A DNA stretch of 54,532 bases from Candidatus Aenigmatarchaeota archaeon (GTDB taxonomy: Archaea; Aenigmatarchaeota; Aenigmatarchaeia; Aenigmatarchaeales; Aenigmatarchaeaceae): the NCBI GenBank assembly GCA_016933455.1, contig JAFGAZ010000001.1:1-54532 (forward strand). The letters are read 5' to 3'. The notes under the pieces were generated by a model. That model saw only the letters and a list, made by a program, of their open reading frames with translations. It did no database searches and was not told where the DNA came from. Positions 6,906 to 51,836 of the stretch are shown here, in pieces. Position 1 is the stretch's first letter; each line of letters opens with the position of its first letter. A program made the translations under genes and the position numbers.

Positions 6906-9754
6906 TTCAACATCTTCCTTAAAAATTTTCCCGTATGGGTATTTTTCTTTGCGATATCTTCCGGCGTTCCCATTGCAACTATAGTTCCCCCGGCGTCCCC
7001 GCCCTCAGGCCCCATGTCTATTATGTAATCGCAGCTTTTCACAACGTCAAGATTGTGCTCAATAACATAAACGGTGTTTCCCTTTTCGACCAAACGATTC
7101 AATACACCAATCAATCTTTTAGTGTCCTCAAAGTGAAGCCCGGTTGTTGGCTCATCAAGCATGTACACGACATGGCCCGACTTTTTCTTGGCAAGCTCTC
7201 GTGTTATCTTGACCCTCTGGCTTTCGCCGCCAGAAAGAGTTGTCGAGCTCTGCCCAAGCTTTATGTAGCCAAGCCCGACATCCAAAAGCGTCTTTAGCTT
7301 CCTGCTTATCGAGGGGACGTTTTCGAAAAACTTGGCAGCCTCGGACACTTCCATGTCCAAAATCTCTGCAATGTTTTTTCCCTTGTAGAATATGTCAAGC
7401 GTTTCCTTGTTGTATCTTTTGCCCTTGCACTCGCTGCACTGCACATAAACATCAGGCAAAAAGCTCATCTCTATTTTTATGACACCGTCCCCCTTGCATT
7501 CCTCGCACCTGCCTCCGGGAACATTGAAAGAGAATCTCCCTGGTTTGTAGCCTCTTGCCTTTGCGTCTTTTGTTAATGCAAAAATCTTCCTGACCTCGTC
7601 GAATATCTTGGTGTATGTTGCAGGATTGCTTCTTGGCGTCTTGCCTATCGGGTCTTGGTCTATGACAACAACGTTTCTTATTGTTTTTGGAATCTTTGAC
7701 AATCTGTGCTTGCCTATATTATCAACCTGCTGGCCAAACTCCTTTCTAAGAATCGGCATCATGGTCTGATTCATAAGGGTGGACTTGCCAGAACCCGAAA
7801 CCCCGGTTATTGCGCACAAAACATTGAGCGGAAACTCTACATCTATCTGCTTTAGGTTGTTTTGGCAAGCCCCATAAAGAGTCATGAAATATTTCGGCTT
7901 TCTTCTCTTCTTTGGAACATCTATTTTCTTTTTGCCGGAAAGGTATTTTCCAGTAAGGCTTTTTTCGCTTTTCATTATTTCTCTTGGCGTGCCAACAGAA
8001 ACTATATGGCCGCCATGAACCCCTGCACCGGGTCCCATGTCAACAATATAGTCGGCGTTTCTTATGGTGTCCTCGTCGTGCTCGACAACAACAAGCGTAT
8101 TGCCTATGTCTCGAAGATTGTGCAAGGTCTTAATTAGCTTCTCGTTGTCTCTTTGGTGAAGGCCGATGCTTGGCTCGTCTAGAATGTATAAAACCCCCAT
8201 CAGGTTCGAGCCTATCTGCGTTGCAAGCCTAATTCTCTGGGCCTCCCCGCCAGACAAGGTCCTTGCAGCCCTTGAAAGCGAAAGGTAGCCAAGCCCCACA
8301 TTGCTAAGAAAGCCAAGCCTCTGGTTTATTTCCTTTAGAACCTGCTTTGCTATGAACATTTCCTTTTTGTTTAATTTTTCAGGAAGCTCTAAGAAGAATT
8401 CGACGGCCTTTTCTATTGACATGTCAGTGACATCTATTATGCTCTTGTTGTTTATCAGAACCGCCAAGACAACTGGCTTTAGCCTTCTGCTCTTGCACTC
8501 GTCGCACGGCGTTGATTTCATAAAGCTCTCTATCATGTTCTTGCGATAGTCGCTGTCTGTTTGCCTATACAGCCTCATGGTCTGGGGTATCACGCCCTCC
8601 CATCCGTCCTCCATGTTCATGTTGGCCCCATTGGACCATCTCCCCCTGATGGGCCTTGGATCCCCGTACAATAAAACATCAAGGCTCTTTCTTTTCATTT
8701 TCTCAATTGGCATAAACAAGTCAAAGCCGTGCTTTTTTCCAACAGCCGATAGCTGCTGCGCCCTCCAGCTAAGGTCCATCTTGCCGTAAACAGCAAGAGC
8801 GCCCTGCATTATGCTCTTCTTTTTGTTGGGTATTACCAAATCCTCTGATATCTCCATTATCTCCCCTAGGCCGTGGCACTTGGGGCATGCGCCGAACGGG
8901 GAGTTGAACGAGAACATCCTTGGCTCAAGGTTTTCAAAAACCATCTCAGGATGGTTCGGGCATGCGCCGAATGTGCTATACATAATCTCGCCCTTGAACC
9001 TGTCTATCTCTCTTTTCTTGCCAGTTTTTTTCTTTGCATCAATAACAATCATTGTCCCCTTGCCGATGTTTAAGGACTGCTCGACTGCCTCTGCTATTCT
9101 CGACCTTTCCTCGTCATCTATCTTTACTGTATCTATGACAGCCTCAATCCAATGCTTCTCGTATCTTGCAAGCTTGACCTGCTTTTTAACAGATTCCAAT
9201 TCGTATATCTTCTGATCAACCCTAACCTTTGTAAAGCCCTGCTTTTTCAAATCATCAAAAACCTTCTCGTGCGTTCCCTTGATGCCTCGAATTATCGGGG
9301 CTAGAAATATCAGTGTCTTTGGCCTTTCAGACATGACAAGGCTTGCAATGTTCTCCGGGCTTTGGGGCTTAATCAAACTGTTGCACCTAGGGCAGTGGTG
9401 CGTTCCTATCCTTGCAAAAAGAAGCCTTAGGTAATCGTAAATTTCGGTGACTGTTCCAACAGTAGACCTTGGGTTCTTGCTTGTGCTTTTCTGCTCAATG
9501 GATATTGCAGGGGAAAGCCCATCTATCGAGTCAACGTCAGGCTTGTCCATTAGGCCAAGAAACTGCCTTGCGTAAGCTGAAAGGCTCTCGACATACCTTC
9601 TTTGACCCTCCGCATATATTGTATCAAATGCCAAGGTGGACTTGCCAGAACCCGAAAGCCCTGTTATTACTATGAACTTGTTTCTTGGAAGCTCTACGTC
9701 GATGTTCTTTAGGTTGTGCTCTCTTGCCCCCTTTACAACTATCTTATCTTTCAT
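6902..9754 (-). CDS. uvrA: Excinuclease ABC subunit A (UvrA)
   Basis: Two ABC modules (GLSGSGKSTLAFDT, GVSGSGKSTL, LSGGE.QR) and CxxC zinc modules. The start is set at ATG 9754 (MKDKIVVKGAREHNLKNI), preceded by GTGATTTT. The track start at 9799 would overlap uvrB. Confidence 0.95.
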   Translation of the reverse strand: MKDKIVVKGAREHNLKNIDVELPRNKFIVITGLSGSGKSTLAFDTIYAEGQRRYVESLSAYARQFLGLMDKPDVDSIDGLSPAISIEQKSTSKNPRSTVGTVTEIYDYLRLLFARIGTHHCPRCNSLIKPQSPENIASLVMSERPKTLIFLAPIIRGIKGTHEKVFDDLKKQGFTKVRVDQKIYELESVKKQVKLARYEKHWIEAVIDTVKIDDEERSRIAEAVEQSLNIGKGTMIVIDAKKKTGKKREIDRFKGEIMYSTFGACPNHPEMVFENLEPRMFSFNSPFGACPKCHGLGEIMEISEDLVIPNKKKSIMQGALAVYGKMDLSWRAQQLSAVGKKHGFDLFMPIEKMKRKSLDVLLYGDPRPIRGRWSNGANMNMEDGWEGVIPQTMRLYRQTDSDYRKNMIESFMKSTPCDECKSRRLKPVVLAVLINNKSIIDVTDMSIEKAVEFFLELPEKLNKKEMFIAKQVLKEINQRLGFLSNVGLGYLSLSRAARTLSGGEAQRIRLATQIGSNLMGVLYILDEPSIGLHQRDNEKLIKTLHNLRDIGNTLVVVEHDEDTIRNADYIVDMGPGAGVHGGHIVSVGTPREIMKSEKSLTGKYLSGKKKIDVPKKRRKPKYFMTLYGACQNNLKQIDVEFPLNVLCAITGVSGSGKSTLMNQTMMPILRKEFGQQVDNIGKHRLSKIPKTIRNVVVIDQDPIGKTPRSNPATYTKIFDEVRKIFALTKDAKARGYKPGRFSFNVPGGRCEECKGDGVIKIEMSFLPDVYVQCSECKGKRYNKETLDIFYKGKNIAEILDMEVSEAAKFFENVPSISRKLKTLLDVGLGYIKLGQSSTTLSGGESQRVKITRELAKKKSGHVVYMLDEPTTGLHFEDTKRLIGVLNRLVEKGNTVYVIEHNLDVVKSCDYIIDMGPEGGDAGGTIVAMGTPEDIAKKNTHTGKFLRKMLK

Positions 9755-9758
9755 AAAA

Positions 9759-11702
9759 TCACTTTTTGGATATTGACTTTTGCATTTCCTCAAGCGCATC
9801 CCTTGCCTCTATTGCCTTTTCGAAATCCAGGTTCTCTGCGTACTCTCTCATCTTGGCCTCAAGCTCTATCATCCTCTTTCTTATGTCGGACTTGGCAAGG
9901 TGCATGGTGCCTTTGATTCTTCTTCCCTTTGCTGAAATCTTCTTTTCTATTGTTTTTGGCACTATTTTGTGCTTTTTGTTAAAATCAATCTGGAACTCTC
10001 TTCTTTTCTTTGTTATCTCCATTGCCTTCTTTATGGAATCGGTCTTCTTGTCAGCATAAAGAACGACCCTTCCGTTTACATTCCTTGCAGCCCTTCCTAT
10101 TGTCTGGATAAGGCTTCTTTGGTCTCTTAGAAATCCTTCCTTGTCTGCATCCAAAATAAATATTGTTGAAACCTCTGGAATGTCTAGGCCCTCCCTTAGG
10201 AGGTTTATCCCAACCAGGATGTCGAATTCTCCCATCCTTAGCTGCCTGACAAGCTCTATTCTGTCAAGGCTCTTGATATCGGAATGAAGATACCTTACCT
10301 TGAAACCCTCCCCTACAAGATAGTCTGTCAGATCCTCCGCCATCTTCTTTGTTATTGTTGTGACAAGCGCCCTATCTCCCCTATCGATTGTCTTTCTTGC
10401 CTCACGCATCAGGTGCTGCATCTGGCCCTTTATTGGATGAAGCTCAACTGTGGGATCCAAAAGACCTGTCGGCCTTGTTATTAGTTCGACTGGCTTTCCG
10501 GATTTTTCAATCTCATAGTCGCCGGGCGTTGCTGAAACGAAAAGAACCTTTTTCATCTTGCCCTCGAACTCTTTGAATTTCAAGGGGCGGTTGTCAAACG
10601 CCGACGGCAACCTAAAGCCGAATTCTATTAGGCTCTTTTTCCTGGCATAGTCTCCGTTGTACATCGCCCTTGCCTGGGGCACTGACTGGTGGCTCTCGTC
10701 GATTATCATAAGAAAGTTATCTGGAAAATAGTCTATCAAAACATAGGGGGGCTGGCCGGGTTTTCTGCCGTCAAAGTGGCGGCTGTAATTTTCAATGCCC
10801 GAGCAAAAGCCCATCTCCTCGATCATCTCAAGGTCATAGTTGGTCCTCTGCTTTAGCCTTTGGGCTTCCAATGGCGCAAGCTCAGGCAGCCTTTTCTTTA
10901 ATTCCAATCTTATGTTTTCTATTGCCTGCTTTTGCTTGTCTTCTGGCACAACGTACTGCCTTGCAGGATAAACCGTAAAGTCCTCGATGTCGTTTTTCAC
11001 CTCGCCTGTTAGAAGGTGAACCTCTCTTATCTTTGAAACAATGTCTTCTTTTAGCTGCACGCGTATTATGTCCTCTTCGTATATAGGCACAATGTCTATT
11101 GTGTCGCCCCTTACTCTGAACTTGCCGGGTTCTAGGTTCACATCGTTTCTTTCGTACTGGATTTCTATTAGCTTGCCGATTAATTCCTTTCTTGAAAGTT
11201 TGTTTCCAACCCTAAGGTCGACTGCCAGCTCTTTGAAATAGTCTGGGTTGCCAAGGCTGTAAATGCAGCTTATGCTTGCAACAATTATGGTATCCTTCCT
11301 GCTAACAATGCTAGACACCGCATGCATTCGCATTTTTTCTATCTGCTCGTTGACAGACGAGTCCTTTTCTATGTAGGTATCGGTTGTTGGTATGTAGGAT
11401 TCTGGCTGGTAATAATCATAGAATGAAATAAAGTATTCGACTCGGTTGTTTGGAAACAGTTCCTTAAGCTCTGTGTATAGCTGGGCTGCCAATGTCTTGT
11501 TGTGAGCAATTATCAAGGTGGGCCTTTGCAACTTGTTTATTATATTGGCCATTACAAAGGTCTTGCCAGAGCCTGTTATGCCAAGGAGCGTTTGCTTGTC
11601 CTTTTTCTTGAAATTCTTCTCCAGCATGTTAACAGCGTCTTCTTGACCAGGAGACATCTTGTATGGAGAATTGAGTTCGAACCTCATAAGAAAACCTATC
11701 AT
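9759..11702 (-). CDS. uvrB: Excinuclease ABC subunit B (UvrB)
   Basis: GITGSGKTF Walker A, DESH box, helicase motifs and the C-terminal UVR motif (FEKAIEARDALEEM). An alternative start ATG lies at 11687 (MRFELNSPY). Confidence 0.95.
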   Translation of the reverse strand: MIGFLMRFELNSPYKMSPGQEDAVNMLEKNFKKKDKQTLLGITGSGKTFVMANIINKLQRPTLIIAHNKTLAAQLYTELKELFPNNRVEYFISFYDYYQPESYIPTTDTYIEKDSSVNEQIEKMRMHAVSSIVSRKDTIIVASISCIYSLGNPDYFKELAVDLRVGNKLSRKELIGKLIEIQYERNDVNLEPGKFRVRGDTIDIVPIYEEDIIRVQLKEDIVSKIREVHLLTGEVKNDIEDFTVYPARQYVVPEDKQKQAIENIRLELKKRLPELAPLEAQRLKQRTNYDLEMIEEMGFCSGIENYSRHFDGRKPGQPPYVLIDYFPDNFLMIIDESHQSVPQARAMYNGDYARKKSLIEFGFRLPSAFDNRPLKFKEFEGKMKKVLFVSATPGDYEIEKSGKPVELITRPTGLLDPTVELHPIKGQMQHLMREARKTIDRGDRALVTTITKKMAEDLTDYLVGEGFKVRYLHSDIKSLDRIELVRQLRMGEFDILVGINLLREGLDIPEVSTIFILDADKEGFLRDQRSLIQTIGRAARNVNGRVVLYADKKTDSIKKAMEITKKRREFQIDFNKKHKIVPKTIEKKISAKGRRIKGTMHLAKSDIRKRMIELEAKMREYAENLDFEKAIEARDALEEMQKSISKK

Positions 11703-40303: not shown

Positions 40304-40678
40304 ATGAAACCCTACTGCGAAATAGTTGCCCAGATAATTCTGCCCAACATAAGGGCTCTTGTAGCAAAGGAGCTCATGGAAAAGTACGGCTTTACGCAGC
40401 AGGCTGCTGCAAAAAAACTGGGCCTAACACAGTCTGCCATTTCCCAGTATCTGAGAAACTTAAGAGGCTCTCAGACCAATGTTTTGGAAAAGGACGAGAA
40501 GATTTCCAAGCTAATAGAGGACTTTGCAGGAAAGCTTGCATCCGGTGAAATGGACTCTTGCAAAACAGTCGAAGCCTTCTGCACATTGTGCAAGGAGCTT
40601 AGAAAAAGCAAAATCCTATGCAAACTCCACAAGGACGCGTTCCCAGAACTTGAGAACTGCAACATCTGCACTTGCTAG
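40304..40678 (+). CDS. HTH (XRE-like) transcriptional regulator with C-terminal Cys cluster
   Basis: YGFTQQAAAKKLGLTQSAISQYLRN (HTH). The C-terminal part has 7 Cys, including CTLC and CNICTC. Confidence 0.7.
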   Translation: MKPYCEIVAQIILPNIRALVAKELMEKYGFTQQAAAKKLGLTQSAISQYLRNLRGSQTNVLEKDEKISKLIEDFAGKLASGEMDSCKTVEAFCTLCKELRKSKILCKLHKDAFPELENCNICTC

Positions 40679-41154
40679 CAGATATTCTGACCAACTTCTT
40701 CCAAAAGAGTCTGGTTTAGGTATATTGTTGAATTGGTCCTTAGGGCAAGGGCTATTGCATCAGAAGGCTTGGAGTCTAATTTCAAAATCTTGTCATTTGA
40801 TTTTAGGACAAGATTGGAATAGTATATGCCGTCGACATAGCTATCCAGCGTGACATACTCCAAGCTCAAATTAAAGCTTCTTAGGGTTTCGGCAAAGATG
40901 TCATGCGTGTTTGGCCTGTCATCTATTATTCCAGCAATGCCAAGCTCTATGGAGTACGCTCTTTCAGGGGATGTCTCTGCCACGATTGCCAGGCAGTCGC
41001 TTCCTATCAGAACTATGCTGCCCTCAACCTCTATTATGTCAGCCTCGACATAGCCGTCAGGCTGCAATGTGCTGATAACAGCAACAACTCCTATGGCAAG
41101 AAGGGATAGAATAATGAAAGCTGAAAATGAAAGCCCTGTTTTTTTCTTTGCCAT
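40675..41154 (-). CDS. Membrane-anchored bifunctional nuclease domain (DUF151/BFN) protein
   Basis: N-terminal MAKKKTG plus TM FSAFIILSLLAIGVVAVI. Then IVLIGSDCLAIVAETSPERAYSIELGIAG...RPNTHDIFAETL...DGIYYSNLVL...LDSKPSDAIALALR, typical of DUF151. Confidence 0.75.
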   Translation of the reverse strand: MAKKKTGLSFSAFIILSLLAIGVVAVISTLQPDGYVEADIIEVEGSIVLIGSDCLAIVAETSPERAYSIELGIAGIIDDRPNTHDIFAETLRSFNLSLEYVTLDSYVDGIYYSNLVLKSNDKILKLDSKPSDAIALALRTNSTIYLNQTLLEEVGQNIC

Positions 41155-41166
41155 AAAATCAAAAAC

Positions 41167-41334
41167 TTATTGTTTCTTTCTAACCATTGGCAGGCCTGTC
41201 CTGGAGTTTTCAAAAACCTCTAGGTTTTCAGGCAGATCAATAGCATCTTCTGGTTTCTTGGAGAAAAAGAAAAGTCTCCCCTTGCTGTGCAACCAATAAG
41301 TGTTGCCCTTGCTGTTTGTGTGACTGTAAGCCAT
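41167..41334 (-). CDS. 55-aa conserved-looking small protein (not in ORF track)
   Basis: Hand translation gives MAYSHTNSKGNTYWLHSKGRLFFFSKKPEDAIDLPENLEVFENSRTGLPMVRKKQ. A strong SD (GAGGTGAAAAAA-ATG) overlaps the upstream pilin stop. The pattern Y.L.SKG..(L/Y)FFSK....A.DLP.....E..RTGLP..KK recalls a widespread small-protein family. Confidence 0.6.
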   Translation of the reverse strand: MAYSHTNSKGNTYWLHSKGRLFFFSKKPEDAIDLPENLEVFENSRTGLPMVRKKQ

Positions 41335-41347
41335 TTTTTTCACCTCA

Positions 41348-41767
41348 TTATTTTAGATTAACCCATGTTGTCCTAACGTCAGGGCAGTTTCCTGCAACGA
41401 CTCTCACTCTGTTGCCGACAATAACACCAGTTCCTGAAAAGTCCGCCCTTATTGTGCCTGAACTTCCAGCGGATATCGAAGTGGCGCCGGTTGCCGTCAC
41501 AGTATTAACATCACCAGTTGAGTTTATGGCCTCTATCTTGAAACCAGACATGTCAACACTTGAAACATCTATTATAGCAACAATCATGCTGCCGCTAAGC
41601 TGCGGATAGTCCGCTGTTGTAAACGTTATTGTCCCGCCAACGCAGCTCTCAAGCTCAGATAAGCTCTGCTGCGTATAGCTTGAAACAAAGCTTGCCAGAA
41701 TGGCGGCAAGCGTCATTGTTATGGCAATAAGCAGTACTGATGCAATCAACGGCGATACTCCTTTCAT
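41348..41767 (-). CDS. Archaeal type IV pilin-like protein (class III signal peptide)
   Basis: MKGVSPLIASVLLIAITMTLAAILASFV is the classic archaeal pilin/DUF1628 N-terminus (K-G then a hydrophobic helix). Confidence 0.8.
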   Translation of the reverse strand: MKGVSPLIASVLLIAITMTLAAILASFVSSYTQQSLSELESCVGGTITFTTADYPQLSGSMIVAIIDVSSVDMSGFKIEAINSTGDVNTVTATGATSISAGSSGTIRADFSGTGVIVGNRVRVVAGNCPDVRTTWVNLK

Positions 41768-41813
41768 GTTGCTCAGTTTTTATTTTATAAAAGCTGTTAT
41801 ATAAACCTTTGTT

Positions 41814-42302
41814 TCAAACTTGCACAAGAAGCATTTGTTTTTGATTTAAAGAGTCATAACCGACGTTTCTTATCACCATGCTGTAGGTGCCGTCACCGAA
41901 TTCCGAACTGCCCGTGACATTGTACGATGAAAGGTCCAAAGAAAGGTATATTCTTCCCTGATCCGCGGTGATGTTTATGCTGTCCTCTATCTTTGAGACG
42001 TTCGCTGCAACTATCTGCGAAAAGGTGTCCATGGTAAACATTATTTTCTCGTTCTCGCCATCAACAGTATAGTATCCGCCCTGGACAGAAATGTCCAAGG
42101 TCCTAGTCGAGCCCTCTCCCTCGCTAAGAACAGTGGAAACTGCGTTATTTATCCTAACAAGATTCCTTTTGGCGTTCTCCATGTTCAGTATCTCATTTGA
42201 CCTGTCAAACGCAGGACCGCTCATCTGCAAAGCCATGTAAACAACAGTTATGGATATCACTATCACGATTGTGCTTGCAACTATGACGCTAACACCCTTC
42301 AT
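41814..42302 (-). CDS. Pilin-like protein (class III signal peptide)
   Basis: MKGVSVIVASTIVIVISITVVYMAL. The ATG overlaps the upstream stop (ATGA). Confidence 0.75.
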   Translation of the reverse strand: MKGVSVIVASTIVIVISITVVYMALQMSGPAFDRSNEILNMENAKRNLVRINNAVSTVLSEGEGSTRTLDISVQGGYYTVDGENEKIMFTMDTFSQIVAANVSKIEDSINITADQGRIYLSLDLSSYNVTGSSEFGDGTYSMVIRNVGYDSLNQKQMLLVQV

Positions 42303-42673
42303 TGAAACACCAAAACATCTCTTCTAATTATTAGGCTCTCGCTAAGATAAGAGTTGCTGCTTTGAAGGGTGATGTTTAGCAAGACTGCTGTTTGGTTTGA
42401 AGTTCGGCTTACAGAGTATGCGACAGTCTGGTTGTAGCCCTTTCTTGCATAGAAATCCTCTGTAAATGAAATGAAATCGTCAAGATTGCCCTCAACACTT
42501 TGCCTGTTTAGCAAGGATGTGTCAATAGTGCTTACTATTTCCGATTTGAGGTTGTTGAAATCATCAAGAAACATGTCGCTTTGCATTATTTCAACTGTCT
42601 CTGTTCCTGCTCTTAGAGAGAATAGGAAAATTAGCACGAATATAGAAATTAGTATGAAAACCTGGCCCTTCAT
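42299..42673 (-). CDS. Pilin/pseudopilin-like protein
   Basis: MKGQVFILISIFVLIFLFSL from the ATG at 42673, which overlaps the upstream stop (ATGA). The track ORF extends to 42778 through the upstream gene. Confidence 0.65.
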   Translation of the reverse strand: MKGQVFILISIFVLIFLFSLRAGTETVEIMQSDMFLDDFNNLKSEIVSTIDTSLLNRQSVEGNLDDFISFTEDFYARKGYNQTVAYSVSRTSNQTAVLLNITLQSSNSYLSESLIIRRDVLVFQ

Positions 42674-43038
42674 TTTAACCACACCCACAAATTGATAATT
42701 CTTGGCTCGTATGTCAAATACCCCCTCATGACATAGCTTGACAAAACAATATTGCCGTCCGGCAGATTTTCTGTGCAAGGACTAGACGAGCATACCTTGA
42801 AAGTATAGTTGGAGGTTTTCGGCAGGCATTCATACAAGCTTGTGTTAAGCTCGCTGTTCATGCTGTTGTAAGCATAGTATCTAAGGTCTCCTGAAGCATC
42901 AAGCTGCTTTAGGCAGTTGTAACCATGGTCGCTGAAAACAAACTCACTACTTTGCTCAATTGGAAATATGCTAATAACGCCTATCAAAAGTATCAAGGTC
43001 CCCATGACCGCCTCGACAGTATACATAGTAGCCTTCAT
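42670..43038 (-). CDS. Pilin/pseudopilin-like protein
   Basis: MKATMYTVEAVMGTLILLIGVISIF. The ATG at 43038 overlaps the upstream TAA (TAATG) and is preceded by GGTGTGG. Confidence 0.65.
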   Translation of the reverse strand: MKATMYTVEAVMGTLILLIGVISIFPIEQSSEFVFSDHGYNCLKQLDASGDLRYYAYNSMNSELNTSLYECLPKTSNYTFKVCSSSPCTENLPDGNIVLSSYVMRGYLTYEPRIINLWVWLK

Positions 43039-43733
43039 TACCACACCTTCAGTATAACATAACTGCTTTCTATCGAACCGTTTGTGTTCTCAATAACAAC
43101 TGGCACGCTCTTAACCAGGATGTTTCCTGCCTCAGGCGGCTCTTCCCCGTAAACACAGTAGTTGTCTATTCTAAACCTGTGCGCAATTCCCAAATTGTTT
43201 CTTACATCATTGTAAGAAAGGCTCTGAAGATTGGAGCATTTTTCCTTGGAAAGAACATTGACATGGCTTTGTGAAAGCACAACAGCCGTTATGTTATTTG
43301 CTGTTATGTTGTTATCATATGAAATGTTGGCTGCTGCTCCAGAATATACCATTGTCACATAGCTTTCCATGTTGGGAGTAAAGCCCAGTTCAAAACCAAC
43401 ACCGTCTTCAATAACTTTTGCTTCTATCTCATCCATTGTTGAATCGTAAACATGCAAAGAGTCGACTGCTTCTATTGTGATGTTGATACTTTCTGTGTGG
43501 GAATAACCCCCGATTTCTTTAAAGACAATTTTTGTTGCGTTAAGCATTGTCATAAGACTGTTGATGTTTTTTGAACCGAATAAACTTTCTGACAAAGAGT
43601 TTGCCGAAGCTTCCAGTTCCTTGTTTTTAAAATATTCAAAGTCCTGCGTAAGCGAGTTGGATACAAAAAATATTGCATAAGATACCATCATGAAAACAAC
43701 CACGAACGCAACTGCAAAATCTATCTGTGCCAT
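43038..43733 (-). CDS. Pilin/pseudopilin-like protein (largest, 231 aa)
   Basis: MAQIDFAVAFVVVFMMVSYAIFFV hydrophobic N-terminus. The ATG at 43733 overlaps the upstream TGA (TGATG). Confidence 0.65.
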   Translation of the reverse strand: MAQIDFAVAFVVVFMMVSYAIFFVSNSLTQDFEYFKNKELEASANSLSESLFGSKNINSLMTMLNATKIVFKEIGGYSHTESINITIEAVDSLHVYDSTMDEIEAKVIEDGVGFELGFTPNMESYVTMVYSGAAANISYDNNITANNITAVVLSQSHVNVLSKEKCSNLQSLSYNDVRNNLGIAHRFRIDNYCVYGEEPPEAGNILVKSVPVVIENTNGSIESSYVILKVW

Positions 43734-44158
43734 CAAACCAAATCCATTGTTATTGTATCCCCGATTTTAGTGACAAAAAGAGACGCAGGCATCATCTTTT
43801 CCCCGCTCATTGAAACATTTATGTCAACAGGCCTTTCAAATTCCAGCATCTGGTTTTCAAAGGGTAGCATTATTTTTATCGTGCTATTTGAAAGGAGCAT
43901 TGTGTATCTTTGGTCCCCGATTTTTTCCGGCAGTCTAAGCAAAAACATGCCGCTAAAGTTGCCATTGCCCTGCATGGTCGAGTATATCTTTAGCATGTCT
44001 GATCGCATTGTTTCTGTGACAAACTCCATTTGAGAATCAAGAAGGTCTCTTTCCGTGTCAGAAAGCGTTGAAGAAACCGAGGCTATTATCATGGCCATTG
44101 CGCCAAGGCCTATTATCAGCATTATGCTGTGGGAAAGAATCGGATGCACGCCTCTCAT
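43733..44158 (-). CDS. Pilin/pseudopilin-like protein
   Basis: MRGVHPILSHSIMLIIGLGAMAMIIASV (R-G then a hydrophobic helix). Confidence 0.7.
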   Translation of the reverse strand: MRGVHPILSHSIMLIIGLGAMAMIIASVSSTLSDTERDLLDSQMEFVTETMRSDMLKIYSTMQGNGNFSGMFLLRLPEKIGDQRYTMLLSNSTIKIMLPFENQMLEFERPVDINVSMSGEKMMPASLFVTKIGDTITMDLV

Positions 44159-44190
44159 AATAAGAGATTGCCGCAGCCCTAATAAAAGTT

Positions 44191-44988
44191 TTACATGAAA
44201 AGGAAGAACACGCCGTATCCTATGATAGTTAATACCATGGAATGCTTAAGGCCTGCAACTATGCTGCCGTGGGCCATCTTGCCAACTACAAGACCCGAGA
44301 AGAAGCCCTCTATGACAATTAGCCACTGGAAGGTGTTGTCGTAGAACTGGTCAATGTTTTTCACGCTGCTAACCGACGTGCCGAAAGAGAAAAGGCTTGG
44401 AACAAGATAGGTCTTTAGTATGACCAAAACTCCAACGAACATGAAGAAGACAGCATAGCCTGTTAGCATCTGGTTGTACACAGAGGAGAACCTCTCCTGC
44501 TTTATCTTGTTTATCTGCTTTATGGTGTCTCCCGCAGCTGTCAGAACATGCGATATGTCCCCTCCTCCCTTGTAGGTCTCAAGTATTGTTGACACGGTCT
44601 TCTTGATTAGGGGGGTGGAGTTTCTTGCAAAGTCCAAAAGTATCCTTTCGAACGGAACAGCCCAGTCTATCTTGATTATTATCTTTTTTACATAGGGGGT
44701 TAGAACCCCGTACTCGTTGTCCTTGGTGGCCTTGATTGCCTGCGTCACTGTCATTCCTGTTTTTATGTTTTGCGTTATGTCCCTTAGGAAATCCGGGAAC
44801 CTTTCCTCTATTTCCTTGTTCTCCTTATAGTCGTTGTACTTTAGAACAAGGGGAGTTGTAACAACCATGACAACGGCAACCCCGCCAACTATGCCGGACT
44901 TTACCGTAAGAAAGTTGCCCAAAAATATGGCCATTCCAAGGAATGCCAGAATTATTATTGCAAGCGATTCGTCTCTTATTTTTTTCAT
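44191..44988 (-). CDS. Type II secretion system F-domain membrane protein (TadC / C-terminal half of FlaJ-PilC-like platform)
   Basis: Single T2SSF domain (FPDFLRDITQNIKTGMTVTQAI...TYKGGGDISHVL) flanked by TM segments. Preceded by GTGATTTT. Confidence 0.8.
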   Translation of the reverse strand: MKKIRDESLAIIILAFLGMAIFLGNFLTVKSGIVGGVAVVMVVTTPLVLKYNDYKENKEIEERFPDFLRDITQNIKTGMTVTQAIKATKDNEYGVLTPYVKKIIIKIDWAVPFERILLDFARNSTPLIKKTVSTILETYKGGGDISHVLTAAGDTIKQINKIKQERFSSVYNQMLTGYAVFFMFVGVLVILKTYLVPSLFSFGTSVSSVKNIDQFYDNTFQWLIVIEGFFSGLVVGKMAHGSIVAGLKHSMVLTIIGYGVFFLFM

Positions 44989-44992
44989 AAAA

Positions 44993-45949
44993 TCACATTT
45001 TCGGCTGCGTTAGCTGTATGAACGCAAGGAATATCATGTTTAGCACAATCAATGAGCCAAGGCCCAGTGTCATTGTGGTCTCAAGGCTAAGCCCCATCAC
45101 ACTGCCCCCTATGACGCTAAGGGTTGAGATGACAACAATGAATATCATGGGGGCTGCCACCAAAAGCGCTGTGTACAAATCAGCGTATGTTGAAAGCACC
45201 TCGTTGTACTTTTCCCTTTTCAGGGTATAGTCAAACATCGTCTTGCCTGCCTCGTCTTTTAGGTACGACCTTATGTCCCCCCCTGTCTGGATGGTCGATA
45301 GCATGCCCTGGAAGATGCTTCTTAGAACAGGGGACGGCGACTTTGTTGCCCTATCCCTTATGGCGCTAAGCTCGTCTAACCCGAACTCCTTGACGTTTCT
45401 TGTTATCTTCTCAGCTTCCTTTGATATCTCGCCGTACTCCTTGAACTGGGCAAGTATCCTAAATATTGTCAAGGGAGGAGCGCCCGACTCTGCAATGGCA
45501 GACATGTGCGTCATGGCAAAGGGCAAATTAGCCTCAATGTCTCTTTTCTTGCTTTCTGCAACTGACATCGGGTATGCGAAAATCAAAAGGAATGTTAGAG
45601 ATGATATGAAAAGCGGCATGACAAAAATTCCCATCAAAAAAAGCATTATGCCAAGGCGCGCCACTATTGCAAATATGAAGGTGGCTGCAAACGTTATGGC
45701 AAATGCTAGAATGGTTGAGAAGAATAATAGCGACAAAAACGTCCTGTACAAAATCTTGACATCAGACATTATCAAGTACTCCTTTAGCATGTAGAATTCC
45801 TTGGAATACAAGTCAGCGTACTTGCCGCAGCATTTTATGGCAAGCATCTTAACAGAATGTTTATAGTCTTCTTTTTCCCTTGGCTTTTTTGTTGGCCGTA
45901 TCCTCTTTGCTTTTGCAGGCTTTTTTCTTTTAGCTGATTTCTTGGGCAT
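44993..45949 (-). CDS. Type II secretion system F-domain membrane protein (TadB / N-terminal half of FlaJ-PilC-like platform) with basic N-terminal tail
   Basis: MPKKSAKRKKPAKAKRIRP..., TM segments, then a T2SSF domain (LPFAMTHMSAIAESGAPPLTIFR...IQTGGDIRSYL). Confidence 0.8.
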   Translation of the reverse strand: MPKKSAKRKKPAKAKRIRPTKKPREKEDYKHSVKMLAIKCCGKYADLYSKEFYMLKEYLIMSDVKILYRTFLSLLFFSTILAFAITFAATFIFAIVARLGIMLFLMGIFVMPLFISSLTFLLIFAYPMSVAESKKRDIEANLPFAMTHMSAIAESGAPPLTIFRILAQFKEYGEISKEAEKITRNVKEFGLDELSAIRDRATKSPSPVLRSIFQGMLSTIQTGGDIRSYLKDEAGKTMFDYTLKREKYNEVLSTYADLYTALLVAAPMIFIVVISTLSVIGGSVMGLSLETTMTLGLGSLIVLNMIFLAFIQLTQPKM

Positions 45950-45978
45950 ATAGTAAATTTAGAAAAGGTCCATATATA

Positions 45979-46674
45979 TTACTTGACAATTGCTTCCTCT
46001 TCGGGATAGATGACAACGCCCTTTTCGGTTATCTTGTAGGGATGCATCTTCGACGAGTGCGAAGAGCCTCTCATCTTCCAGACCGTGACAGACCTTGCGA
46101 ACTGCGAATCGACTCTGGAATAGTATAGAACAATGACGTTATCTGTTACGAACTCCTCAACCCCGAACCTTGAAAGCGCTGACTGCTGCGGAGGTATCTC
46201 GGATATTAGAATTGAAGAGCAGTTTAGCCTTCTTAGCAAGAACGATATGTTGAAAATCATTCTTCGAATTTCCGAAGTTTCCTTGACGTAAAGGCCCAGG
46301 GCTGATATCGAGTCTATGACAACCCTTTTGGCGTCTATCTTCTTGATGTTGGTTTCGATTAGCTCGTATATGTCCTCTATGTGGAACGGGTCGTACTTTA
46401 CAAAAATGATTTTTCCCTGCTCCTCAAGCTCGGTAAAGTCCATGCCGTGGTTTACGCAGCTGCTTTTTATGCTGTCTATGGGCTCCTCGAATGTAACGTA
46501 CACTCCAGGCTCGTTGTATTTCTTTGCGCCCTCGTAGAGGAACTGCGTTGAAACAGTGGTCTTACCAGTACCAGCCGTGCCTGTGAGAAGAACAAGGTTC
46601 TTTGGGATAAACCCGCCCCCGGTTATCTCGTCTAGGCCTGGGACGCCTGTTTTTGTACGTTCGCAAGTCGGCAT
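45979..46674 (-). CDS. KaiC/RecA-superfamily ATPase (FlaH/ArlH-like)
   Basis: GVPGLDEITGGGFIPKNLVLLTGTAGTGKTTVSTQFLYEG (Walker A) and RVVIDSISAL (Walker B). A single KaiC-like domain of 231 aa. Confidence 0.82.
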   Translation of the reverse strand: MPTCERTKTGVPGLDEITGGGFIPKNLVLLTGTAGTGKTTVSTQFLYEGAKKYNEPGVYVTFEEPIDSIKSSCVNHGMDFTELEEQGKIIFVKYDPFHIEDIYELIETNIKKIDAKRVVIDSISALGLYVKETSEIRRMIFNISFLLRRLNCSSILISEIPPQQSALSRFGVEEFVTDNVIVLYYSRVDSQFARSVTVWKMRGSSHSSKMHPYKITEKGVVIYPEEEAIVK

Positions 46675-46708
46675 AATAGAATAACACCATCCATTTTAAA
46701 TAAAACTG

Positions 46709-46783
46709 CGCTCCGGACGCGATTTGAACGCGCGACCCCTTGCTTAGGAGGCAAGTGCTCTATCCAAGCTGAGCTACCGGAGC
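46709..46783 (-). tRNA. tRNA-Arg (anticodon CCU)
   Basis: GCTCCGG-TA-GCTC-AGCTTGGATA-GAGC-A-CTTGC-CTCCTAA-GCAAG-GGGTC-GCGCG-TTCAAAT-CGCGT-CCGGAGC-G. 75 nt, no intron, no encoded CCA. Confidence 0.9.
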
Positions 46784-46808
46784 TTATTGAATAGATAGAC
46801 AGAATACG

Positions 46809-46816
46809 TTTTAAAT
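46809..46816. promoter_or_regulatory. Shared/bidirectional TATA-like box between tRNA-Arg (-) and ORF 46839 (+)
   Basis: TTTTAAAT lies 26-33 nt upstream of tRNA-Arg position 1 and 23-30 nt upstream of the ATG at 46839. Confidence 0.4.
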
Positions 46817-46838
46817 GTTTAATTGTTGAAATATCTTT

Positions 46839-47054
46839 ATGCTTCTTAGACAAAATAAAAAAGATCTAGCAAAACCAAGTGATTTGCCAAAAAGGTTCAA
46901 CCTAAACAACAAAGATCACGAAGCTCTAAAAAATCTACATGAAGACGTTCTATTTAATACGAATTATAATGGTAATATAAAATTGGGTAATTCTGAACTT
47001 TTGTTAACATCCAAAAATTCTACGTATTATCTTTCCAAAGAAGAAAACGATTAA
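46839..47054 (+). CDS. Hypothetical 71-aa protein
   Basis: ORF with leaderless-type spacing to the TATA-like box. No motif recognised. It converges on the ATPase gene. Confidence 0.35.
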   Translation: MLLRQNKKDLAKPSDLPKRFNLNNKDHEALKNLHEDVLFNTNYNGNIKLGNSELLLTSKNSTYYLSKEEND

Positions 47055-48851
47055 TCAGATAAAGACTTTGATGTCCTTTTTTGTTGTGACAGTTCTTAGA
47101 AGCGACTTGCCAAGGTCAGAACTTTTTGAAACCTTTATCTGGCCGGTCCTTCCGATTGTTGCAGAAAACAAATATTCCTTGTTTATGTAAACGCTCGCGT
47201 TCCTTCCAGAAAGCTTCTTGCTAAAGCTAAGAACAATATAGCCACCCGTCTCGTTGATTTCAAAGCCGATTTCCTTTCCCATTGACTCGACCTGGGGCTG
47301 CACCTCTATTGACATGCCCAGCTTTTCCTCGATCTTCTTGATATTGCTACCCTCCTTGCCGATTATCCTTGCTATCTTGTCGTTTGCAGCCTTGACCAAA
47401 ATCTTGTTGTCCGAAAGAAAGTCAATTTCAGCTGTTCTGTCAAACTTTCTTATCTCTTTTTTTATCTTCGAAATGGCAAGCTTTTGCAAGCCCGATATTT
47501 CCTTTTTCTTTACAGGAACAATGACTGTCTGCTCGCCGTAGGTATAAATCTCATACTCTAGTTTTCCGTTTTCAAAGTCAGTGACCTCAACCAAAGGTCT
47601 TGCAAGGTCTGCTTCTGCCATGCCTGTTGGGACCCTGACCGTCAAGTTCAAGGAAAACACTTTGAGAATTTGTCCGTCCTTTATGAAAAGAATGGTGTCA
47701 ATTACATGAGGTATCATGCCAAGCTCGATTTTTCCAATGAACCTTTGTATTGCGTCAATCGGGTCTGTTGCATGCACGACCCCTATCATGCCAATGCCGG
47801 CCAGCCTCATGTCTGAAAATATCAAAAACTCGTTTCTCTTCCTTATGTCGTCGAAAATGGTATAATCGGGCCTTACCAAAAGCAGGATGTCGGCGGTTTT
47901 TTCGAACTTGCCCTTCAGGGGCGCGTACTGGGTTATCTCCTTTGGCACCTGCAGATCCCTTGGCTGCTCCATTGTTTTCACAATCTTGCCCTTTTTCATG
48001 TAAAATTCGGCCAAAGAAGCTGCCAGAGTGGACTTGCCAGAGCCTGGAGGGCCTGCCAATAAAACGCCCTCTGCCTTTTCATCCAGCCTTTTCTTTAATT
48101 TTTCAGAAAGCTTGTAATCATCCAAAACAAGCTTGACAGTGGGCCTAACCAGAGTTATCTCCAAGCCATCTGAGAAAGGCGGCCTTGCTATGGCAACCCT
48201 CTTGTCTTTTAATTGCACAACAGTTGCCCCGTGCTCCCCGTATTCCACAAAGGAGTCGTCCTCATACCTTGCAGCATCTAATATCTCTGTTGCAATGACG
48301 TTTAGCTCTTCCTCTGTCATGGGATTTTTCCTCAAAGTGACAAAGTCCACGCCCCCGGGCCTTCCCCTTTTGGCAAAGGGCAGTGCCCCGTCCTTTAGGT
48401 GCAAGGACATGGTGTCATCTGTTAGAAAATCTTCAATCTTTATTCGTTCAGCCTTCTCATAGGCCTCGAAATACTTTACCTTAAGGCCCTTGACCTCGGC
48501 AATTATGGCCTGCAGCCTGTCGGATGTGATGAAAATTGCCTTGTTTTGTTTGGCAACGTCTATTATCATGGCGTCTATTCTGCCGGATTTTGCCAATAAT
48601 ATATCTTCATAGCTCTGCCTTTCGCCCAGAAAATTTATCGTGAGCTTGTGCTTTTTTTCCAGCTTTTGTATTTTCTTTATCTCCTCAAGCCCGATGTAAC
48701 CAATCTCCCTTCCCTTTGATGCCTGGGCCTGCAGTTCGGACAAGACCAACTCCGGGATTATTAGCTCGGATTCGTCTAGCTTCTTGTCCTCTATCATCTG
48801 CGTTAGCTTGCCGTTGATAACAGAGGATGTATCAACACAGAACTTTTTCAT
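47055..48851 (-). CDS. PIN domain - PilT/VirB11-like ATPase - KH domain fusion protein (COG1855-type 'PilT family ATPase')
   Basis: N-terminal PIN-like region (KKFCVDTSSVINGKL...). Then LLAGPPGSGKSTLA Walker A with VRPDYTIFDDIRK and GVVHAT (T2SE-like core). C-terminal KH GxxG (KIARIIGKEGSNIKKIEEKLG). The ATG at 48851 fits TATA spacing better than the one at 48860. Confidence 0.82.
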   Translation of the reverse strand: MKKFCVDTSSVINGKLTQMIEDKKLDESELIIPELVLSELQAQASKGREIGYIGLEEIKKIQKLEKKHKLTINFLGERQSYEDILLAKSGRIDAMIIDVAKQNKAIFITSDRLQAIIAEVKGLKVKYFEAYEKAERIKIEDFLTDDTMSLHLKDGALPFAKRGRPGGVDFVTLRKNPMTEEELNVIATEILDAARYEDDSFVEYGEHGATVVQLKDKRVAIARPPFSDGLEITLVRPTVKLVLDDYKLSEKLKKRLDEKAEGVLLAGPPGSGKSTLAASLAEFYMKKGKIVKTMEQPRDLQVPKEITQYAPLKGKFEKTADILLLVRPDYTIFDDIRKRNEFLIFSDMRLAGIGMIGVVHATDPIDAIQRFIGKIELGMIPHVIDTILFIKDGQILKVFSLNLTVRVPTGMAEADLARPLVEVTDFENGKLEYEIYTYGEQTVIVPVKKKEISGLQKLAISKIKKEIRKFDRTAEIDFLSDNKILVKAANDKIARIIGKEGSNIKKIEEKLGMSIEVQPQVESMGKEIGFEINETGGYIVLSFSKKLSGRNASVYINKEYLFSATIGRTGQIKVSKSSDLGKSLLRTVTTKKDIKVFI

Positions 48852-48872
48852 AATGAGCATTTGTTTATAGAA

Positions 48873-49826: not shown

Positions 49827-51836
49827 ATGAGCGGTTTCGCATCATATCATCCATCGATTGATTCAGGAATCAATGGTAGTGTACGTAAGAAAATGAAGGA
49901 AACTGATGATTTATACCAGGCTTTCAAAGACGCAGTTGGTGTTAGAAACATCTTTAGCAGGAAAAGAAAGCAAAAAAACCTCCAAAAAACTCAAGATTAC
50001 TTTGAAAAAATAGGCAAATCCAAGGATTTGGAGCATATTAACAAAGTCGAGGAAAAAATAGCCAACATGGCTAGCGATCCGAGATATTCTAGCAGACAAG
50101 CTCAAAAGCAACGCGAACAGGAAAGAATAAAGAAAGAAAATGACATGAAGGAGCTTGAAAGGGAAAACAACAGACAACTTCTTAGGGAAAGAATTTACAA
50201 CGGTCTGAATCTTGTAAAGGTAGAAAAGAAGAAAAAACTCGGCTTTATTCCATCATATGAGACTACTTTTGACCTTGAAAGCGGCTACGAGGACCTTTTC
50301 AAGAATGCCACCATAAAAACTGACAAGTATTTTGTGCATTCAGAGATGGCAAGAATGGAAAAGGAGGAAACCAATCCAAAAAAGAAACTAAAATTAACAG
50401 GTCTTAAGAAGACTTATGCTAAAAAAGAAAAAGTTCATAGAAAGAAGATTTGGAGCGGTATTTTCTTGGGTCTAACGGCCGGAATGGTTGGAACGGCGTT
50501 TGCAATAGATGTTCTAAATAATAACAATAATAAAGAATTGGACAGTGATGGAGACGGTATACCTGATTATAAGGATCCTGAACCTTTTGTTTATAACAAT
50601 CCAAATCAAAATGATAATACACCTGTTTATAACGAACCGACTCAAAATAATGAGCCTGAAACTGTTACAAATCCGGTCGTTCAATACGCAGAAGGCAAGG
50701 GTTTGTCAAAATCTGTAATTGATACTTTAAAAGTTCTTGGAGATGACGGTGATATGAGCCAAAGCGACAAAGCGCTTGTGGACACAGTCTCTTATGTGGG
50801 CTCTAGCCTAATACCTTCGGGCGTAAAGGTATACTATACGGACAATGAAATCCAGGATATACAAAATGATATTATACATTCTGTTCTTAGTGATGGAAAA
50901 GTTGGTTCCGTTGAGACGGAGGCCATGTCCAAATTGCCAAATGAGAGATGGTATGTTGTAAAGGATATAATTGATGCTGGAATGGTTAATGATGTTGCTT
51001 TGTCAGAAAATTGGGACGGTAGTGGACCTAGCAATATAGAAGAGATAAGGCAGGGTACCAACCCCTTGAATGATTTGGAAGATGTTCCTGGAGATTTTAG
51101 TGACAGGTATGCTGTTTTAGTGGAAACTTTAGGTTCTCCAGGTGCTGTAGGAAGGGTTTTAGGAACTTATCATCTTTTGAAGAAAAACGGTTATTCTGAC
51201 GACAAGATAAATTTATCAATAAAACTTAGTCCGGAATTTGAGGAAAGTGATATAAGTTTAGATAGAGGAGGTCTTGCGAGTGGATTAGAATGGTTAAAGG
51301 AAGACTTGAAAGGAAATCTTATTCATGATTACAAAACAGTAATAGACCATAGGGATGGAGAAATTACACCTATTACTATTTCTAGTTGGATAAAGGATTT
51401 GAATTCTGATGGAAACGACAGTATTTTCATATATCATAATGGTCATGGTGGTCAGCTCGGTTCAGGAGAAGAATTGAATAATGCTTTAAATCTAATAAAT
51501 TATAAAAATCTTTTAATTTTAAACGATTCATGTAGTGCAGAAGGACTTGTAAAGTCATTAAATGGACAAAAACAGCTTAAAAATGTAGTGGCAATAGCAT
51601 CAAGTTCTGAAGGAGAGGATGTAGGGTCTTTATTCTCAGATTCTTTCTTACCGCTTGTTAAAGAAGGTTTGAATGTTGACGACGCTTATGAATCTGCAAA
51701 AAAAATTGTTTTAAATGAGGATTTACGTGAACAAAATCCTGTCATATACTCTTTCGATACTTCTATAAATCAACCTAAAAACAGCAAACTTCCATGGCTG
51801 AGCAGTTTTAACTTCTTCAAATACATAAAAAAGTAG
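49827..51836 (+). CDS. Membrane-anchored clan CD cysteine peptidase-like protein (legumain/C13-like His-Cys dyad) with KE-rich cytoplasmic N-terminal region and TSP3-like Ca-binding motifs
   Basis: About 200 aa of K/E-rich N-terminus, then TM IWSGIFLGLTAGMVGTAFAI. Motifs DSDGDGIPDYKDPEP and GTNPLNDLED. Peptidase blocks RYAVLVETLGS...HLLKKNGYSDDKI, IFIYHNGHGG (His) and LLILNDSCSAEG (Cys). Confidence 0.6.
   Translation: MSGFASYHPSIDSGINGSVRKKMKETDDLYQAFKDAVGVRNIFSRKRKQKNLQKTQDYFEKIGKSKDLEHINKVEEKIANMASDPRYSSRQAQKQREQERIKKENDMKELERENNRQLLRERIYNGLNLVKVEKKKKLGFIPSYETTFDLESGYEDLFKNATIKTDKYFVHSEMARMEKEETNPKKKLKLTGLKKTYAKKEKVHRKKIWSGIFLGLTAGMVGTAFAIDVLNNNNNKELDSDGDGIPDYKDPEPFVYNNPNQNDNTPVYNEPTQNNEPETVTNPVVQYAEGKGLSKSVIDTLKVLGDDGDMSQSDKALVDTVSYVGSSLIPSGVKVYYTDNEIQDIQNDIIHSVLSDGKVGSVETEAMSKLPNERWYVVKDIIDAGMVNDVALSENWDGSGPSNIEEIRQGTNPLNDLEDVPGDFSDRYAVLVETLGSPGAVGRVLGTYHLLKKNGYSDDKINLSIKLSPEFEESDISLDRGGLASGLEWLKEDLKGNLIHDYKTVIDHRDGEITPITISSWIKDLNSDGNDSIFIYHNGHGGQLGSGEELNNALNLINYKNLLILNDSCSAEGLVKSLNGQKQLKNVVAIASSSEGEDVGSLFSDSFLPLVKEGLNVDDAYESAKKIVLNEDLREQNPVIYSFDTSINQPKNSKLPWLSSFNFFKYIKK

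Follow-up and report, generated by a model that had tools for sequence, protein, structure and literature searches.

We describe here a minus-strand operon on a 54,532-nucleotide stretch of DNA (contig JAFGAZ010000001.1; hereafter the window, at 54.5 kb probably the entire assembled contig) from a member of the Aenigmatarchaeota, a DPANN phylum, and propose, with a probability that we put at about 0.75, that it encodes the platform and the pilins of an Epd-like/Tad-like archaeal type IV pilus (T4P), an ordinary system that is split over two loci. A preliminary description of this DNA had already recognized the operon as type IV pilus/Tad-like, which we retain, and had gone on to suggest a reduced or re-wired machine, which we abandon: the motor gene FlaI lies on the same contig 51-71 kb away in three relatives, or is linked to these genes in sister lineages. 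Gene arrangements and trees across lineages are most simply read as one system, the parts of which are placed differently by lineage. DPANN type IV pili are leading candidates for host attachment, and a full parts list, including genes outside the operon, is needed before reduction can be inferred; a motor gene that is missing from one contig window is not thereby missing from the genome.

The operon consists of eleven closely packed genes that run in one direction from 46674 to 40675, as read from the list of open reading frames (ORFs) and from the sequence itself: a KaiC-like ATPase, the N-half and the C-half of a T2SSF platform, six small genes (pil1-pil6), a short ORF (orf55) and a BFN nuclease (Table 1). 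The gene positions given in the preliminary description hold exactly or within a few codons for all listed genes, and we could confirm its account of a tightly packed operon with start-stop overlaps, with a KaiC-family ATPase, with a platform split over two T2SSF genes, and with a 55-aa ORF and a membrane-anchored nuclease at its end. With refined starts, pil1 to pil6 begin MRG|V, MAQIDF, MKA|T, MKG|Q, MKG|V and MKG|V; the junctions of the small genes overlap as TGATG, TAATG, ATGA and ATGA, and the gap between the two platform genes is 4 nt. The TATA-like TTTATTTAAAA between tRNA-Arg and the KaiC gene may serve as the operon promoter, judging from its sequence, and a 46-nt spacer 5' of pil6 contains TTTATATA / TTATAAAATAAAAA. 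Base composition is uniform along the window, with no sign of a foreign island.

The two platform genes match the N and the C halves of two-domain NCBIfam models (the N-half aligns to ArlJ 18-249 of 555 and UpsF 23-253 of 484; the C-half to UpsF 286-413 of 484 and ArlJ 193-451 of 465), and thus represent a true fission of one platform. The N-half is a separate ORF in all orthologues and paralogues examined. In paralogous loci of the phylum, a T2SSE ATPase of 570-600 aa immediately precedes the homologous split pair, which indicates that the split is old and is normally accompanied by FlaI.

As a separate observation, a Lys/Arg-rich N-terminal tail of ~14-39 residues (45850-45949 on the minus strand of the window, MPKKSAKRKKPAKAKRIRPTKKPREK...) is found on KaiC-linked N-halves, namely those of the window and of the related loci L001, L004, L016, L018, L024, L014 and L101; the N-halves of FlaI-only loci are without it.

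For the small proteins, we scanned all six frames of the window for M-x(0-4)-[KR]-[GA] followed by a 20-residue hydrophobic stretch in ORFs of at least 80 aa, a class III signal test by regular expression and hydropathy rather than by the dedicated FlaFind. There were exactly five matches, all within the operon. In each of the five families, 15-16 of 16 orthologues keep M-[KR]-[GA] and the hydrophobic stretch, beyond which there is no other membrane segment, and small-protein identities drop from ~85% to 25% across relatives. Of the six class III-signal pilin-like genes initially described, five therefore stand by the motif, two of them (pil5 and pil6) by their homology to solved pilins or archaellins as well; pil2, with the motif in 0 of 17 orthologues, does not.

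The strongest case is pil6. Its family profile matches the solved archaeal pilus subunits 8rey_M (E 4.5e-4), 8fj5_A, 8gi2_A, 9myg_A and 8fk7_A, and mature chains that start at residue 1 (8rey_M, Iho670) align from pil6 position 4, directly after MKG. Being the best conserved of the six small proteins (77-84% identity in close relatives), having its own TATA-like element and being homologous to solved pilins, pil6 would be the major subunit. The N-termini of pil5 and pil6 are homologous (hhalign probability 95.8%, E 8e-9), and the pil5 profile matches the solved archaellin 7txi_A (E 0.0035). Orthologues of pil5 range from 162 to 1085 aa, the window having the short form; the extensions are C-terminal and variable, with Gp53-like_C (tail-fibre) or GH114_assoc domains, as expected of an adhesin-bearing minor pilin. 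To judge from these domains, pil5 in the relatives is probably the carrier of a swappable adhesin-like C-terminal module on a pilin stalk. Long orthologues of pil5 lie at L016:14327-15784, L021:8710-10218, L024:14665-17229, L023:9155-12295, L027:11697-14861 and L034:14351-17608.

What marks pil1, pil3 and pil4 as putative pilins is the signal motif; searched against PDB sequences, their profiles gave chance-level matches only. Between the N-termini of pil1 and pil6 there is weak profile similarity (hhalign probability 56%, E 1e-4), and pil1 has a faint DUF7266 match. In pil3, which overlaps pil2 by TAATG, T7, E9 and four Cys are invariant, and in pil4, which overlaps pil3 by ATGA, M-K-G-Q is invariant; a longer TTG ORF for pil4 is an artefact of choosing the first start codon. 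The AlphaFold2 model of pil2 (mean pLDDT 82) has a helix over residues 2-52 followed by a beta-rich head, and a Foldseek search of the model against PDB returned nothing beyond E 0.01 or TM 0.26, so that a pilin shape can be read only from the topology of helix and beta head; we regard pil2 as possibly pilin-shaped on this model, and as unproven. A protein resembling pil2 ('QIDF') is encoded in the FlaI-type locus L008.

Neither a T2SSE motor nor a Peptidase_A24 was found among the window ORFs scanned, and tblastn with Aenigmatarchaeota FlaI and PibD gave no match in the window; the absence of FlaI/PilB and PibD from this stretch, as first reported, is therefore real. As query for a search of relatives we used the FlaI-like protein of L014, the gene of which lies 3 kb 5' of its KaiC operon. 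FlaI homologues that are 58-67% identical to it apparently share contigs with ~10 KaiC loci, and for three of these both genes could be confirmed on the same record. In JAZDKZ010000001.1, the window's closest relative, KaiC lies at 7.9 kb and FlaI at 60.0 kb (~52 kb apart); in Ga0480576_000008 the computed positions are ~182.9 kb and ~112.1 kb (~71 kb apart), and in Ga0315285_10000004 they are ~79.6 kb and ~130.9 kb (~51 kb apart). A fourth relative has FlaI in the same setting, presumably on the contig that carries its KaiC gene. In all four the lone FlaI has no T2SSF or pilin neighbour and sits between Radical_SAM/Wyosine_form(-) and Lon_C(-), which are both on the opposite strand. In L014, the same Radical_SAM/Wyosine_form and Lon_C genes flank a pilin, FlaI, a divergent KaiC2-V4R module and the complete block of KaiC, T2SSF, T2SSF and six pilins. 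Other lineages have other arrangements: in L101 the four genes FlaI-KaiC-T2SSF-T2SSF are consecutive, in L032 the FlaI-KaiC pair overlaps by 4 bp, and in L102 a stretch of 6 kb takes in FlaI, a Peptidase_A24 and the KaiC orthologue. This peptidase (L102:11606-12439; PF01478, E 6e-11) lies 0.8 kb from the KaiC orthologue, and tblastn with Aenigmatarchaeota PibD found no second copy among the fetched loci; prepilin peptidases are often unlinked from pilus loci (PMC6668835). Of what the preliminary description had itself named as speaking against its proposal, a canonical FlaI on the full contig and a locus that matches a classified clade are essentially what the relatives present, except that FlaI is not adjacent.

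Two side observations concern these FlaI loci. Five FlaI homologues (P0139, P0179, P0202, P0208 and P0219) carry a precomputed SWIB (PF02201) match, which is odd for a pilus ATPase. The divergent module between FlaI and the KaiC operon recurs in two lineages (L014:6962-9949 and L102:7957-9920) and encodes a second KaiC-like ATPase (PF06745 and DUF7504), V4R-domain proteins (one or two) and a pair of small membrane proteins; the module could be an accessory for sensing or regulation.

The operon itself is kept in more than 15 loci of Aenigmatarchaeota. A scan with the platform N-half, at one genome per species, gave 13 loci, of which eleven are labelled Aenigmatarchaeota/Aenigmarchaeota and two 'uncultured archaeon'; four of the 13 have the entire block, as do many metagenomic contigs retrieved with the KaiC protein. 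The full operon is present in L001-L004, L014, L016, L018, L020, L021, L023-L027 and L034, with an unchanged order of the six small genes and, as a rule, with orf55 and the nuclease. The comparison of neighbourhoods proposed at the outset thus shows that KaiC, the split T2SSF pair and the six small genes co-occur across loci, the DUF151 nuclease being absent from them in L014 and L101.

In neighbour-joining trees, drawn within the Aenigmatarchaeota only and by simple distances, the lone FlaIs cluster with KaiC-linked FlaIs and apart from the other FlaI clade, and the KaiC-linked platform N-halves form a matching clade. In other words, the trees are congruent, and FlaI and the platform belong to one system. 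The window's own genome presumably encodes such a FlaI as well.

The accessory ATPase can be placed more precisely. Its best PDB matches are KaiC CI domains and PH0186/PH0284; it aligns once, to the CI half of the ~519-aa KaiC, and so has one domain instead of two. It scores under the curated cut-offs of every named NCBIfam KaiC family, and with 35.2 bits against a cut-off of 215 for the ArlH model (31 against 194 for the FlaH subfamily model) an orthologue of ArlH can be ruled out. In 16 orthologues there is no variation in Walker A (GTxGTGKT), in Walker B (VIDS) or in the Glu pair of FEE; mean column identity is 76% and identities are 62-91%. The KaiC orthologues, all at 54% identity or more, are clearly set apart from other matches, of which the next has 44% (L033) and the rest, generic KaiCs, at most 40%. 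No KaiB- or KaiA-like product, as in the KaiABC oscillator, was found among the operon products. The T2SSF pair directly follows the KaiC gene in ~20 related loci, and the linkage of KaiC varies: with FlaI alone in L032 and L102, with platform and pilins in the window's clade, and with both in L014 and L101. By analogy, the protein is most likely an ArlH-like accessory partner of FlaI, with which it would be in contact, and not an ArlH orthologue. Its strong conservation and shifting linkage make it a good candidate for probing KaiC/ArlH-type ATPases in non-rotary type IV filament motors.

A bolder version, which we put forward only tentatively and consider somewhat unlikely, is that the motor cannot do without the KaiC-like ATPase, which would be its third core component and, as the pilus counterpart of ArlH, would bridge FlaI and the fissioned platform, perhaps via the Lys-rich tail limited to KaiC-linked platform N-halves. 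Tight coupling between KaiC and platform would explain why the split of the locus left the platform genes with KaiC and not with FlaI. If true, the ArlH-ArlI-ArlJ design would be no invention of the archaellum, but an older feature of Epd-like pili that was preserved in DPANN.

We therefore envisage a conventional pilus, as follows. The prepilins pil1 and pil3-pil6 would be inserted in the membrane and cut after M-[KR]-[GA] by a PibD-type A24 peptidase encoded elsewhere, and the two T2SSF half-proteins would build the membrane platform. Assembly would be powered by a FlaI-type hexameric ATPase, in this clade a lone gene ~50-70 kb off, and gated by the KaiC-like ATPase, which would dock on FlaI, on the platform or on both, in the way in which ArlH acts on ArlI. 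With pil6, transcribed from its own TATA-like element, as the major subunit, the translationally coupled pil1-pil5 would be a minor-pilin initiation or tip set, which in relatives would include a variable adhesin-like module on pil5. Attachment to host cells or surfaces would be the likely role.

Several points weigh against this proposal. The trees are plain distance trees with no support values, and the window shows neither FlaI nor an A24 peptidase for its own genome; indeed, tblastx of the window against the relatives' FlaI loci found no shared sequence, the FlaI neighbourhood lying outside the window, and collinearity with the L001 contig is lost beyond ~35 kb. The KaiC-like protein, a putative binding partner of FlaI or of the platform, is not orthologous to ArlH. 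Among the small proteins, pil2 lacks the class III motif, and pil1, pil3 and pil4 show no detectable homology to solved pilins. Finally, A. subterraneum has a second complete FlaI-T2SSF-T2SSF locus (L010), which could in principle supply the ATPase.

Table 1. Features of the operon and its surroundings, with positions counted from the first letter of the window
Feature	Position	Strand	Evidence or remark
BFN (DUF151) nuclease, membrane-anchored	40675..41154	-	PF02577 E 9e-23, residues 64-156; N-terminal MAKKKTG plus transmembrane segment
orf55, 55 aa, basic, cytoplasmic	41167..41334	-	ATG at 41334 behind GAGGTG Shine-Dalgarno
pil6, candidate major pilin, 139 aa, MKG|VSPLIASVLLIAITM...	41348..41767	-	Pfam Pilin_N E 2e-7, TIGR02537 E 2e-7
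pil5, pilin-like, 162 aa, MKG|VSV...	41814..42302	-	motif in 16/16 orthologues
pil4, minor pilin-like, 124 aa, MKG|QVF...	42299..42673	-	motif in 15/15 orthologues
pil3, minor pilin-like, 122 aa, MKA|TMYTVEA...	42670..43038	-	motif in 15/16 orthologues
pil2, putative pilin-shaped accessory protein, 231 aa, MAQIDF...	43038..43733	-	class III motif in 0/17 orthologues
pil1, minor pilin-like, 141 aa, MRG|VHPILSH...	43733..44158	-	M[KR][GA] plus hydrophobic stretch in 16/17 orthologues
Platform C-half, one T2SSF domain, TadB-like position	44191..44988	-	PF00482 E 3e-12
Platform N-half, one T2SSF domain, TadC-like position	44993..45949	-	PF00482 E 6e-15
KaiC-like ATPase, single domain, 231 aa	45979..46674	-	PF06745 E 1e-69
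Spacer tRNA-Arg/KaiC	46675..46707	-	33 nt; TATA-like TTTATTTAAAA ~25 nt 5' of ATG, read directly from sequence
tRNA-Arg(CCT)	46708-46783	-	33 nt upstream of KaiC gene
PIN-ATPase-KH protein (PINA)	47055-48860	-	PRK13764 789.9 bits vs cut-off 340; PINA model 480 bits
p197, seventh pilin-like gene, 197 aa	49187..49780	+	divergent from PINA; motif degenerate in window and L001 (MPVNILQ...)

As to the role, the filament could instead be mainly a device for DNA uptake or nucleotide scavenging that works with the BFN nuclease, an idea that is compatible with the machinery proposed above and that we consider unlikely. The nuclease is the last co-directional gene and is syntenic in the window's clade, its catalytic domain is predicted by the positive-inside rule to lie outside the cell, and natural transformation of M. 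maripaludis needs type IV-like pili and a putative membrane-bound nuclease (PMC10133366). However, the outward orientation comes from the positive-inside rule only, the nuclease is not beside the operon in L014 and L101, and the unrelated flanking genes TrmB and ThrRS are equally syntenic, so that the linkage may be mere synteny; nor was a ComEC-like or other DNA channel seen. The link of the nuclease to the pilus is thus uncertain.

It is also quite unlikely that the pilus is served promiscuously by the FlaI of another complete locus ('type B', FlaI-T2SSF-T2SSF) in place of the lone FlaI. A. subterraneum does have both a KaiC-type locus (L004) and the type B locus L010, and ATPase/TadC modules are reported to serve different pilin sets (PMC4858521). 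The lone FlaI, however, is orthologous to the FlaIs that are linked to KaiC and platform in L014 and L101, and to KaiC in L032 and L102, while the type B FlaIs are a separate clade that the platform tree mirrors. Moreover, PilB paralogues of Sulfolobus failed to complement each other (PMC4371748).

A truly re-wired motor, in which FlaI has given way to a KaiC-like hexamer that drives assembly on the split platform by itself, appears very unlikely. It would account for the KaiC gene being directly 5' of the T2SSF pair, the slot of FlaI in paralogous loci, for the strong constraint on its invariant catalytic motifs, and for the lack of any FlaI within 10 kb of the operon in more than 12 loci. 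Yet an orthologous FlaI is kept on the same contig in 3 of 3 genomes verified, the L101 order shows KaiC to be an addition and not a substitute, and in L032 and L102 the KaiC gene goes with FlaI and not with the platform. That we know of no RecA/KaiC-type ATPase driving a T2SSF platform also counts against it.

Hardly credible, finally, is a role of PINA as the pilus motor. In favour of it are a PilT/VirB11-like core, a weak T2SSE match (E 6e-6) and a place beside the operon in most of the clade's loci. Against it, the protein belongs at full length to PRK13764, 790 bits against 340, with the PIN, T2SSE-like and KH_1 domains of a hexameric branch-migration (DNA-repair) ATPase that is conserved throughout the Archaea (PMC6061704), a tRNA gene that has its own spacing stands between it and the operon, the adjacency is missing in L014, L101, L102 and L032, and the unrelated neighbours TrmB and ThrRS are likewise kept in the clade, so that the adjacency reflects lineage synteny. 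Its family membership and the lack of an operon link in those four loci rule it out as a pilus motor; the PIN-ATPase-KH protein, first noted as the only T2SE-like ATPase core nearby, is a housekeeping neighbour outside the pilus system.

Some neighbouring genes deserve mention. With 76% mean column identity in 14 orthologues (consensus MAYSH.NSKG.TYWLHSKG.LFFFSK.PE..IDLP..LEVFEN.RTGLPMVRKK), orf55 matched no Pfam family or PDB chain; it goes with the operon in the window's clade only, being absent from L014 and L101, and is probably no core part of the pilus. The p197 gene has no Pfam family; its orthologues begin with MKA|V, MQG|V, MRG|A or MHG|A ahead of a hydrophobic stretch, and its position is kept in L001, L002, L018, L020, L023, L026 and L034. 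At 49827-51836 (+) the window encodes a 669-aa protein with a membrane segment in mid-sequence and a thrombospondin-type-3-like DSDGDGIPDYKD repeat, which adjoins p197 in L002; given a faint, sub-threshold Peptidase_C13 (legumain-like) match around H-G...C, it could be a surface protease. Farther off, we noted at 234-536 (-) a 100-aa protein in which a long N-terminus rich in Lys is combined with a SWIB/MDM2 domain (E 9e-6), and, at 4999-11702 (-), a complete bacterial-type UvrC-UvrA-UvrB nucleotide-excision-repair cluster in this small-genome archaeon.

Among known systems, the operon most resembles the Epd-like pili (Methanococcus maripaludis EpdA-E, EpdJ/EpdK, EpdL) and the clade 1/2 euryarchaeal T4P of Makarova 2016. 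Two contiguous one-domain T2SSF genes that arose by fission and short major pilins are described for Epd-like archaeal pili as well as for bacterial Tad, and Epd loci have a FlaH-like secondary ATPase (Denise 2019, PMC6668835); two tadC-like genes in many euryarchaeal loci, KaiC-family ATPases in non-archaellum T4P operons and a modular reshuffling of components have likewise been reported (Makarova 2016, PMC4858521). The features that at first seem unusual, a KaiC/FlaH-like ATPase and a fissioned platform, are therefore not new, and the earlier view that FlaH accompanies FlaI only in archaella does not hold. Further likenesses are a short major pilin of ~140 aa, the KG| cleavage motif and a KGQ pilin (PMC4371748), several minor pilins, and a dispersal of the pilus genes over two or more loci, the peptidase standing apart; in M. 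maripaludis, piliation needs both PilC paralogues (PMC4371748). The differences are equally clear. The order is (FlaI)-KaiC-N half-C half here and platform-platform-ATPase-FlaH in Epd (PMC6668835); in the window's clade the ATPase gene lies apart from those of the platform, whereas the parts of the ATPase/TadC module mostly stay side by side (PMC4858521); by its scores the secondary ATPase is a generic KaiC and not ArlH/FlaH; and the host is a DPANN archaeon. The likeness to Epd is one of features, and not of a reference phylogeny.

With the archaellum triad ArlH-ArlI-ArlJ the system shares, in L101, a RecA/KaiC-fold ATPase encoded with a FlaI-type ATPase and a T2SSF platform, which suggests an accessory role comparable to that of ArlH, the binding of which to ArlI is phosphorylation-dependent (bioRxiv 10.1101/2021.03.19.436134). 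Unlike in the triad, the KaiC of the window is no ArlH orthologue, the platform is split where ArlJ is single, and the subunits are small pilins. In line with the preliminary description, which saw no archaellin or FlaF/G, Pfam and NCBIfam scans of the operon products and their neighbours found no archaellum parts (archaellins, ArlF/G, ArlC/D/E, ArlX).

Bacterial Tad (type IVc) pili likewise have a TadC-like gene followed by a TadB-like one in a single-domain pair, short pilins and several minor pseudopilin-like genes. They differ from the system described here in that the latter has an archaeal-type signal motif, a Pilin_N pilin N-terminus and an accessory ATPase of KaiC type; the Tad parts TadZ/CpaE (ParA/MinD), TadA, secretin and TadD/G-type proteins were absent from the scanned window products. 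The single-domain archaeal KaiC homologues (PH0186/PH0284, TIGR03877/TIGR03880), proposed signalling hubs that are the best sequence matches of the window's KaiC, also have one RecA-like domain with intact Walker A/B and catalytic Glu pair; unlike them, the KaiC of the window is tied genomically to T4P platform and FlaI genes, in an operon without a KaiB-like partner. The text of the 2016 census makes no mention of DPANN (Makarova 2016). What is particular here is the gene order FlaI-KaiC-N-C, the separation of FlaI from the platform in one clade, an accessory ATPase that scores as a generic KaiC, and the occurrence of such a system in a DPANN phylum.

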